Assembly (NCBI GenBank): GCA_001662655.1
Contig: KV460227.1
Reading direction: 5' to 3' (one strand)
From: Pseudogymnoascus verrucosus
Lineage: Eukaryota
DNA: 20,000 bases
Positions 15,613-16,938 of the stretch are shown here, piece by piece. A model generated the notes under the pieces. That model saw nothing but the letters and a program-made list of their open reading frames with translations. It ran no database searches and was not told the DNA's origin. Each line of letters begins with the position of its first letter. The first letter of the stretch is position 1. A program made the position numbers and the translations under genes.

Positions 15613-16938
15613 CTTACTGGTGGGGAATTTGAACTGATGGTTGAGGGTGGTGTACTTCTGAGTTATGGAGGTAGGAAAGTAGGGTTTGTTCCTGGTTCTA
15701 ACCATTTTGGAAGACATGGTTTTCTGGGTAGGACAGAAGACTTTGTTCCTGTTCTAACCGTTTACAAAAACGTGGTTTCTGGATACAGGCACAGACCGCA
15801 CCTTCGGGATTCCGGTTACGGCCAAGAAAGTTGGGAAGAAGGCGTGACTATTTTCCCATTTCGAGATGGAGTCGCTAGATGGGAGGTTTTGCTTCTTACT
15901 GGTCCGGACTTTTTGTCCGGACCGTTGAGAGGGTGGTGTGGTGTGTGCTTTCTGGTTATGGGAGAAGGCTTTGTTCCTGTTCTAACTGTTTACAAAGACT
16001 TAGTTTTCTTGGTTACAGACGGAAGACTTTGTTCTTGTTCTAACTGTTTACGAAGACACAGTTTTCTGGTTAGGACAGAAGACTTTGTTCCTGTTCTAGC
16101 CATCTTCGAAAACGTGGTTTTCTGGATACAGGCACAGACCGCCGCACCCTCGGTTTACTGGCCCGGACTTTGTCCGTCTCGTTGAGAGGGTGGTGTGCTT
16201 CCTGGTTACCGTCAAAGACTTTGTTTTGATCCTGTTCTAACCTTTTACAAACACTTGGTTTTCTGGTTACAGACGAAACACTTTGTTCCTGTTCTAACCA
16301 TTTACGAAAACGTGGGTTTCTGGACTTTACCCTCGGCGAGTGCCCGGTTATGGCCAAGAAACCAGGACTCTTTTCCTTTCGAGATGGAATACTGGATGGG
16401 GATTGTGGTGGATTGAGAGATGAGGCTTCATACTGGAGAAGGGTTTGTCCTCCTTGTTGAGGGTGGCATGCTTTCTGGTTACGGATAGAGACTTTGTCCC
16501 TCTTCTAACTATTTACAAACCCATGGGTTTCTGGTTACGACCAAGATGTCAGTTTACGGTATGGGTTCTTCTTCCTTCTTTCAATGTAGCCAGCCGACGG
16601 ATGCGAGGCGTTTCTTTTTCACTGGCACAGACTTTGTTGGCCATTGCCGGAGGCCTGGTGTTCTGGTTATAGGCTACGGCCAGGTTTCGAGAGTTGCGAA
16701 TGGAGGCATGACTCTTTCCATTTTTGATGGAGATTATGGATACAGATCAGGTGGATGAAAGGAGTTTTTTTTCTATGGATAAAGACCGAGTTCCGGATAC
16801 CTGGGCCAACATCAATTTTTTACCTTCTGGCCGTTGGCGGAAGAATAGTTCTCTGGTTATTGGTTACGGTCAAGAAAGGAAGCACCGAACTCGCGAAGGC
16901 ATGACTCTCTTTCTCTGAGAATGGAGTCGCTGAATGGG
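15613..16938. repeat. Degenerate higher-order tandem array (~57-bp unit x8 plus recurring linker modules)
   Basis: The core CTTTGTTCCTGTTCTAAC (with variants) occurs at ~15684, 15741, 15969, 16027, 16083, 16219, 16281 and 16492. A TTTCTGGTTA-like motif recurs ~14 times. Confidence 0.88.

Follow-up and report, generated by a model that had tools for sequence, protein, structure and literature searches.

The 20,000-nucleotide window of Pseudogymnoascus verrucosus DNA analysed here (NCBI GenBank assembly GCA_001662655.1, contig KV460227.1) contains, at positions 15613–16938, an array of short repeats composed of eight R, five L, three T and five to six M modules, all in direct orientation. As judged from module alignments, the array is a higher-order repeat that has not been homogenised. 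It is non-coding, occupies a syntenic locus common to related assemblies, changes between relatives by the turnover of modules and is unevenly conserved along its R unit; this description, taken as a whole, is held with high confidence. In kind, the array is an ordinary repeat, namely a fungal higher-order minisatellite that is old and not homogenised, and as such not a surprise. It is proposed, tentatively, that the array may present a same-strand row of putative docking sites for a DNA-binding protein, and the view that it is a functionless relic is nearly as likely.

The repeats far exceed what chance would produce. With up to one mismatch, the delimiter motif TTCTGGTTA matches the window 14 times against 4.58 expected matches, a count reached in none of 200 shuffles and in agreement with the roughly 14 copies given in an earlier note on this DNA. 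Furthermore, 12 of its 13 plus-strand matches lie within 15722–16859. Similarly, a 17-nt core of the R unit, allowed up to three mismatches, has seven window matches against 0.08 expected. Because the delimiter and core counts are both far above expectation, chance is excluded as an explanation for the array. A low-stringency self-comparison of the window (51 matches) revealed no modules outside 15300–17000 and no inverted copies of any module; four of the 51 self-matches fall outside the array, each spanning at most 27 nt with an E value of at least 0.087. Of the two repeat checks that the earlier note had proposed, self-comparison thus bore out direct copies confined to the array, whereas Tandem Repeats Finder (TRF) catches only 15949–16098 (period 58, 2.6 copies).

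Modules were defined by cutting the sequence at TTCTGGTTA-like delimiters. The R units occur in clusters of two, three, two and one, as previously described. Their lengths from R1 to R8 are 56, 55, 57, 57, 56, 61, 57 and 56 nt, and this range of 55–61 nt agrees with the earlier remark that unit lengths break frame. Pairwise identity among R units is 66–88%, and mean column identity in the module alignments falls from 77% (R) to 63% (L) and 45% (M). The R units that stand directly before each T module (R2, R5 and R7) share 84–88% mutual identity, compared with 66–81% for other pairs. Correspondingly, R1-R2-T1, taken as a block, matches R4-R5-T2 with 79% identity, and T1 and T2 have a run of 24 identical bases in common, at 15776 and 16119. 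The L-Rn-T-(M) blocks are 189–283 nt long and, as super-units, 50–66% identical. That R2, R5 and R7 form the best-matched set points to a true higher-order repeat derived from one ancestor of ~57 nt, and the array is called old because its units are 12–34% diverged.

The other module types were compared with the R consensus. L modules score z 2.9–7.2 against shuffles, compared with z −0.9 to 0.7 for five control stretches, and on this alignment L is a diverged R-type unit. The first 60 nt of M match the R consensus weakly (z 1.8–4.1), partly through the common delimiter, and M is weakly suggested to be a diverged R-type unit as well. Module cutting, the L z-scores and the R2/R5/R7 identity together sustain the earlier description of a modular higher-order array that is not a simple satellite.

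Synteny of the locus extends to four related assemblies (X2, X3, X4 and X5), whose contigs cross from the flanking DNA into the array. In X3 the contig follows the window collinearly over 15078–16248 and then returns to a second copy of 15733–15855 (joint side 124 nt). A jump from 15855 to 16554 is seen in X3 and X4, which also have little or no cover of ~16292–16573, and X5 has other joints. Related arrays are also represented among protein sequences, through ORFs (open reading frames). A phmmer search of 1.84 billion representatives gave four matches at E ≤ 0.001, three of which (P0001, P0002 and P0125) are short ORFs of related arrays; the fourth, a 4096-residue repeat protein at 29% identity, was rejected as spurious. 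Word-indexed protein searches added only P0003, so that these four are the only array ORF translations in the protein collections searched. The module order in P0003 is R R R M L R T M, and that in P0002, from a more distant relative, is M L R1-type R/T M L. From the differing joints and orders, it appears that modules are gained and lost among relatives while their identity and order rules persist.

Divergence along the locus is not uniform among the relatives. In the left part, X3 and X4 differ from the window at 40 of 1171, 19 of 681 and 6 of 369 letters, whereas their right flank diverges by ~10% and is rich in gaps (112 letters in 1121 and 142 in 1355). By position, X3 and X4 differ by 1.6–3.4% over 15078–16100 and by ~10%, again with many gaps, over 16876–18230. 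The pattern in X2 is reversed, with 15 of 753 and 5 of 310 letters differing on the left and 22 of 2727 on the right, or 2–4% left of ~15750 and 0.8% over 16074–18800. These opposite patterns are better explained by an ancestry mosaic than by constraint, and they suggest an ancestry switch inside the array near 16250–16300. Short, mostly non-coding fragments are described in one study, which also includes RNA-seq of two strains, as exchanged between otherwise clonal Pseudogymnoascus lineages (PMC4438637). The array locus is a useful marker of lineage mosaicism in the genus.

Variation along the R unit is uneven, with a variance/mean ratio of 1.56 in the eight-unit alignment. Within the 17-nt core, TTTGTTCCTGTTCTAAC, 7 of 136 cells depart from the consensus (column-permutation p 0.011). 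Part of the unevenness is mutational: the nine CpG-prone columns carry 3.0 non-consensus cells per column, compared with 1.05 elsewhere, and their changes are of the type CG to CA or TG. Leaving out the CpG columns does not abolish the difference, with 0.41 non-consensus cells per column in the core and 1.33 elsewhere (Mann–Whitney p 0.003), and when the delimiters are left out as well the values are 0.41 and 1.48 (p 0.006). The core holds CTTTGT together with a doubled TGTTC. Its TTTG is invariant in all eight R and all five L units, and CTTTGT occurs nine times on the plus strand of the array, or 6.7 per kb, compared with 0.51 per kb outside it. The core is also kept in the translated R units of three other arrays, where it reads FVPVLT (P0001/P0003), LCSCSN (P0002) and LVPGSN (P0125). 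The possibility, raised in the earlier note, that the array is unique to this strain and mutates uniformly does not agree with a repeat that is common to relatives and in which substitutions are uneven.

In the best explanation of these observations, a ~57-nt ancestral unit duplicated head to tail and its copies diverged into the subtypes R, L, T and M. Blocks of these (L-Rn-T-M, 190–280 nt) underwent further duplication, giving a higher-order minisatellite at a single locus, which differs between related species through the gain and loss of whole modules. The R core meanwhile stayed almost intact as the remainder of the unit decayed, quickest at CpG sites. If the array has a function at all, the eight R cores and five related L cores would form a row of same-strand putative docking sites, and a sequence-specific DNA-binding protein on these cores may influence transcription or chromatin nearby. 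The binding, the protein and its consequences are postulated from the uneven conservation of the core. Among the functions that the earlier note had suggested, a protein-binding array stays the best reading, and a tentative one.

Several observations weigh against docking sites. The p-values for the core treat eight R units, aligned over 65 columns, as independent despite their common ancestry, and they overstate the evidence because the units are only eight in number and related by descent. Close relatives vary in how many modules they have and in what order, and decay is much stronger in the right half of the array (~16300–16940), as seen in the 45% column identity of M; module turnover and right-half decay are also expected of a functionless array. 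The low divergence of 15078–16248 in X3 and X4 was considered as a sign of constraint and dropped, as X2 shows the opposite. That CTTTGT is the core of fungal high-mobility-group (HMG)-box sites is a lead rather than a test. Separately, a scan of metagenomes with the R core yielded 119 loci with single chance matches, none of them array-like beyond 27 nt, and was set aside, the pattern being too degenerate.

The functionless relic, a serious contender that nevertheless falls short of an even chance, would be an old minisatellite, a product of slippage and unequal exchange in a gene-poor stretch. It would persist because removal or homogenisation of such an array is rare in a mostly clonal lineage, and its core would be kept through mutation bias and common unit ancestry rather than by selection. 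The gain and loss of modules between relatives and the decay of the right half fit this account, as does the excess of changes at CpG-prone columns, in which mutation bias shapes the pattern. P. destructans carries homologues of Dim2, Rid and Dnmt5 (PMC6709928), which is likewise in keeping with a relic. So are the marginal indices of the repeat-induced point mutation (RIP) type in the array (TpA/ApT 1.06; (CpA+TpG)/(ApC+GpT) 0.93), the lack of any recognisable gene within 3 kb of the array in Pfam scans of open frames and the mainly clonal nature reported for the genus (PMC4438637). Less easily reconciled with a relic is a core that remains less variable than other non-CpG columns despite containing two TpG dinucleotides. 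Its retention in the translated R units of three other arrays also counts against a relic, as does an M-L-R1-type order that is still recognisable in the distant relative represented by P0002 when the units are 12–34% diverged.

It is doubtful that the array specifies a non-coding RNA (ncRNA), whose transcribed modules would bind protein as a multivalent scaffold or sponge or serve as a small-RNA precursor. Every unit lies in one orientation and strand skew over 15–17 kb is strong (GC skew 0.33 and 0.11; AT skew −0.21 and −0.18), as a transcribed array might predict. Two modules also fold better than their shuffles: L2 has z −4.4 on the plus strand and −6.2 on the minus strand, and an 11-bp stem in R5 has z −3.5. 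Single-module folds are, however, inconsistent, and the L2 and R5 hairpins are not common to paralogous modules. The RNAalifold consensus of the eight R units, which are paralogues only, has an energy of −1.86 kcal/mol with an unfavourable covariation term of +0.64, so that the covariation check proposed in the earlier note came out negative. An Rfam search of 15000–17600 with E up to 10 returned nothing besides one chance-level microRNA row. In addition, neither a telomerase template-like 9-mer near the array nor any pairing of box C with box D was found. The multi-unit ncRNA of the earlier note is therefore without structural support from Rfam, single folds or alifold.

An origin from 5S ribosomal RNA (rRNA) was also considered and rejected. 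Aligned locally to the 5S gene of the window, the six M modules, R2, L2 and the complete array all score within the shuffled range, and the 5S model has no match in 15000–17600 at E up to 10. The 5S gene is the sole structured-RNA gene found in the window and lies away from the array. The array is neither 5S-derived nor a described RNA.

A broader form of the docking-site proposal, in which selection would maintain the array across Pseudogymnoascus as a multivalent platform, is improbable. Its 8–13 same-strand cores would recruit one protein, either as DNA or as ncRNA. The recruited protein may be, for example, an HMG-box regulator of development or mating in this largely clonal genus, and the platform could work as a distal regulatory or chromatin-organising DNA element or as a repeat-built non-coding RNA.

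A decayed gene with 19-residue repeats, as contemplated in the earlier note, or a Kex2-type repeat precursor, is very unlikely. The longest frame (15601–16182, plus strand, 194 codons) was matched in just 5 of 500 mononucleotide shuffles, and gene callers predicted ORFs on the related arrays (P0001, P0002, P0003 and P0125). However, the R consensus has no stop in two of its three plus-strand frames, and repetition of these stop-free frames suffices to explain a long open frame. The lengths of the R units break the reading frame between units, and a single ORF can read one R type in two frames, as happens both in the window and in P0001/P0003. The codon-position check that had been recommended showed no bias: non-consensus cells in the R alignment fall 27/25/34 by codon phase, without third-position excess, and the six listed X2 differences that lie in the longest frame are spread 2/2/2 over the codon positions. 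No protein family emerged among the phmmer representatives, whose matches were the three short array ORFs and the spurious hit described above, nor did any Pfam family. Dibasic (KR/RR) sites, looked for by reading the translations, are not regular. From these results, the array is non-coding.

The array is very unlikely to be a mobile element. A relic or subterminal block of one, for example of a large cargo-carrying element near the 5S gene, carries as little weight as a coding origin: the modular look and the presence in the window of a HET-domain gene (2894–4909) and a 5S gene (18928–19047) invite the idea, but the window contains no inverted module copies, no terminal inverted repeats (there are only three weak, non-collinear inverted-repeat pairs) and no transposase, integrase or recombinase family in Pfam scans of 9, 58 and 65 frames, the locus is syntenic in four relatives and only four array ORFs occur in the protein collections searched. 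These findings do not support the subterminal repeats that the earlier note had put forward, and its proposed check for nearby transposase or recombinase genes came out negative within the window. Unitig depth in X2, which is not a copy number, is 43–92 over the array compared with 50–56 in flanking contigs; at no more than ~2× the flanks, this depth is a weak hint against many dispersed copies.

The modules follow one another along the plus strand. The left limit of the array is probably ~15440 rather than 15613, which would give ~1.5 kb in total. The intervening stretch, 15440–15612, holds a probable M0, a diverged M-type module whose assignment is weak: it shares a ...CATGACTCT block with M4 and M5 and aligns with M tails, and P0125 begins in the equivalent stretch of a relative. 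The linker L1 (15613–15665), identified in the L alignment, scores z 3.4 against the R consensus. It is followed by R1 (15666–15721), a divergent unit with 66–75% identity to the other R units and a 1-nt insertion in its core; an R1-type unit likewise follows L in P0002 and P0003. R2 (15722–15776) has an exact core and is 88% identical to R5 and 84% identical to R7. T1 (15777–15809) has 24 nt identical to T2, and M1 (15810–15895) is recognised from the repeat families of the self-comparison and the M alignment.

The second block opens with L2 (15896–15949), a linker that carries a 9-bp perfect hairpin absent from the other L modules. R3 (15950–16006) has an exact core, and R4 (16007–16063) and R5 (16064–16119) each have a core with one mismatch; the local 11-bp stem lies in R5. 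T2 (16120–16154) shares the 24-nt identity with T1 and completes this block. The linker L3 (16155–16199), 90% identical to L2 over 29 nt, precedes R6 (16200–16260), whose core carries a 5-nt insertion, and R7 (16261–16317), whose core is exact. T3 (16318–16343), a degenerate T, is a weak assignment that rests on delimiter cutting, and M2 (16344–16429) is a repeat family in the self-comparison and in the M alignment. The translation of R7-T3-M2 is nearly identical to the end of P0001 and P0003.

L4 (16430–16472; z 5.6 against the R consensus) is followed by R8 (16473–16528), whose core has two mismatches, and by M3 (16529–16618), a degenerate M found by self-comparison and M alignment. L5 (16619–16660) is a weak linker and the most R-like of the L modules (z 7.2). 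A long degenerate M4 (16661–16850), supported by self-comparison and the M alignment, leads to M5 (16851–16938), the last module, whose tail repeats that of M1 with 89% identity over 18 nt. The earlier note had placed its linkers where they are found here, at 15613, 15896, 16155, 16430 and, weaker, 16619, and its two T elements (~15786 and ~16129) correspond to the modules that begin at 15777 and 16120. Its M elements were recovered at 15810, 16344, 16661 and 16851; that list was incomplete, and M3 at 16529 and the probable M0 have been added to it.

Variable intergenic and promoter tandem repeats of fungi have been reviewed ('Beyond Junk - Variable Tandem Repeats...', PMC3899988). They are like the present array in being non-coding, built head to tail from units of tens of bases, variable in number among relatives and proposed to have a possible effect on nearby transcription. 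Unlike such fungal minisatellites, the array is old (66–88% identity) and not homogenised, with four subtypes in a higher-order period. Among the matches listed from the Pseudogymnoascus literature, no title or abstract snippet suggests a comparable array.

Primate alpha satellite consists of megabase arrays in which several diverged monomers make up a larger unit and this unit recurs. As in the array, where R2, R5 and R7 fill this role, the positional homologues of its super-units are the most similar; the array differs in being a single locus of ~1.5 kb with super-units only 50–66% identical and in having no sign of a centromeric or high-copy context. In Ustilago, pheromone response elements, which are HMG-box sites with a CAAAG-type core, cluster near mating-type genes. 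These clusters resemble the array in placing many short CAAAG-core sites of the same type within 1–2 kb of non-coding DNA. The putative sites of the array, in contrast, are set in a scaffold of tandem duplications, and Pfam scans of the same 9, 58 and 65 frames detected no mating or pheromone gene in the window. NORAD and the Xist repeats are long non-coding RNAs made of repeats, with many docking sites for one protein. Like the array, they consist of several diverged unit copies with a small conserved core on one strand; the array differs in having no conserved fold. If the core is a real docking site, the array would be a natural multi-site array for finding the binder and a way to ask what role a distal regulatory or chromatin element plays in a compact fungal genome.

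The genes recognised in the window lie away from the array. Pfam scans of open frames identified the HET-domain gene (2894–4909) on the plus strand; the best homologues of its protein, all under Pseudogymnoascus names, are 93%, 85% and 82% identical, which places the genome, that of a filamentous ascomycete, in this genus. A gene of the peptidase-inhibitor I66 family occupies two exons on the minus strand (5645–6309), and a DUF1996 gene lies at 10588–12109, also on the minus strand, with an internal frame change that suggests an intron. The 5S rRNA gene (18928–19047, minus strand) is complete and dispersed, and it matches model positions 1–120 of 120 with 74.2 bits. None of the 58 open frames of at least 50 codons between 12.2 and 19.6 kb matches any Pfam family, which leaves the array in ~7 kb where no gene is recognised. 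The neighbouring frame 18096–18536 (minus strand) was pursued as a lead and set aside, with no Pfam match and uninformative Atlas scores of at most 0.77.

Further features of the window were noted on either side of the array. To its left, 13600–14600 is C-rich (41% C) and contains a perfect (CACTGCACC)x8 microsatellite at 13882–13953. Strand composition turns G/T-rich near 14590 and remains so through the array. To the right, a stretch of ~140 nt (18198–18339) is the only part of the window matched by second contigs of X3 and X5, which are unlike the window on both sides of it, and this pattern points to a second copy elsewhere in those genomes; Pfam, Rfam and Atlas gave no lead for the stretch. 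A sub-threshold match to the SNORD69 model, which is of the box C/D small nucleolar RNA type, lies at 18757–18827 on the plus strand (22.8 bits compared with a gathering threshold of 37; E 0.44). At the end of the window (19690–19998), a G17 run, an N gap at 19708–19740 and a C-dominated tract of ~170 nt look like assembly artefacts.

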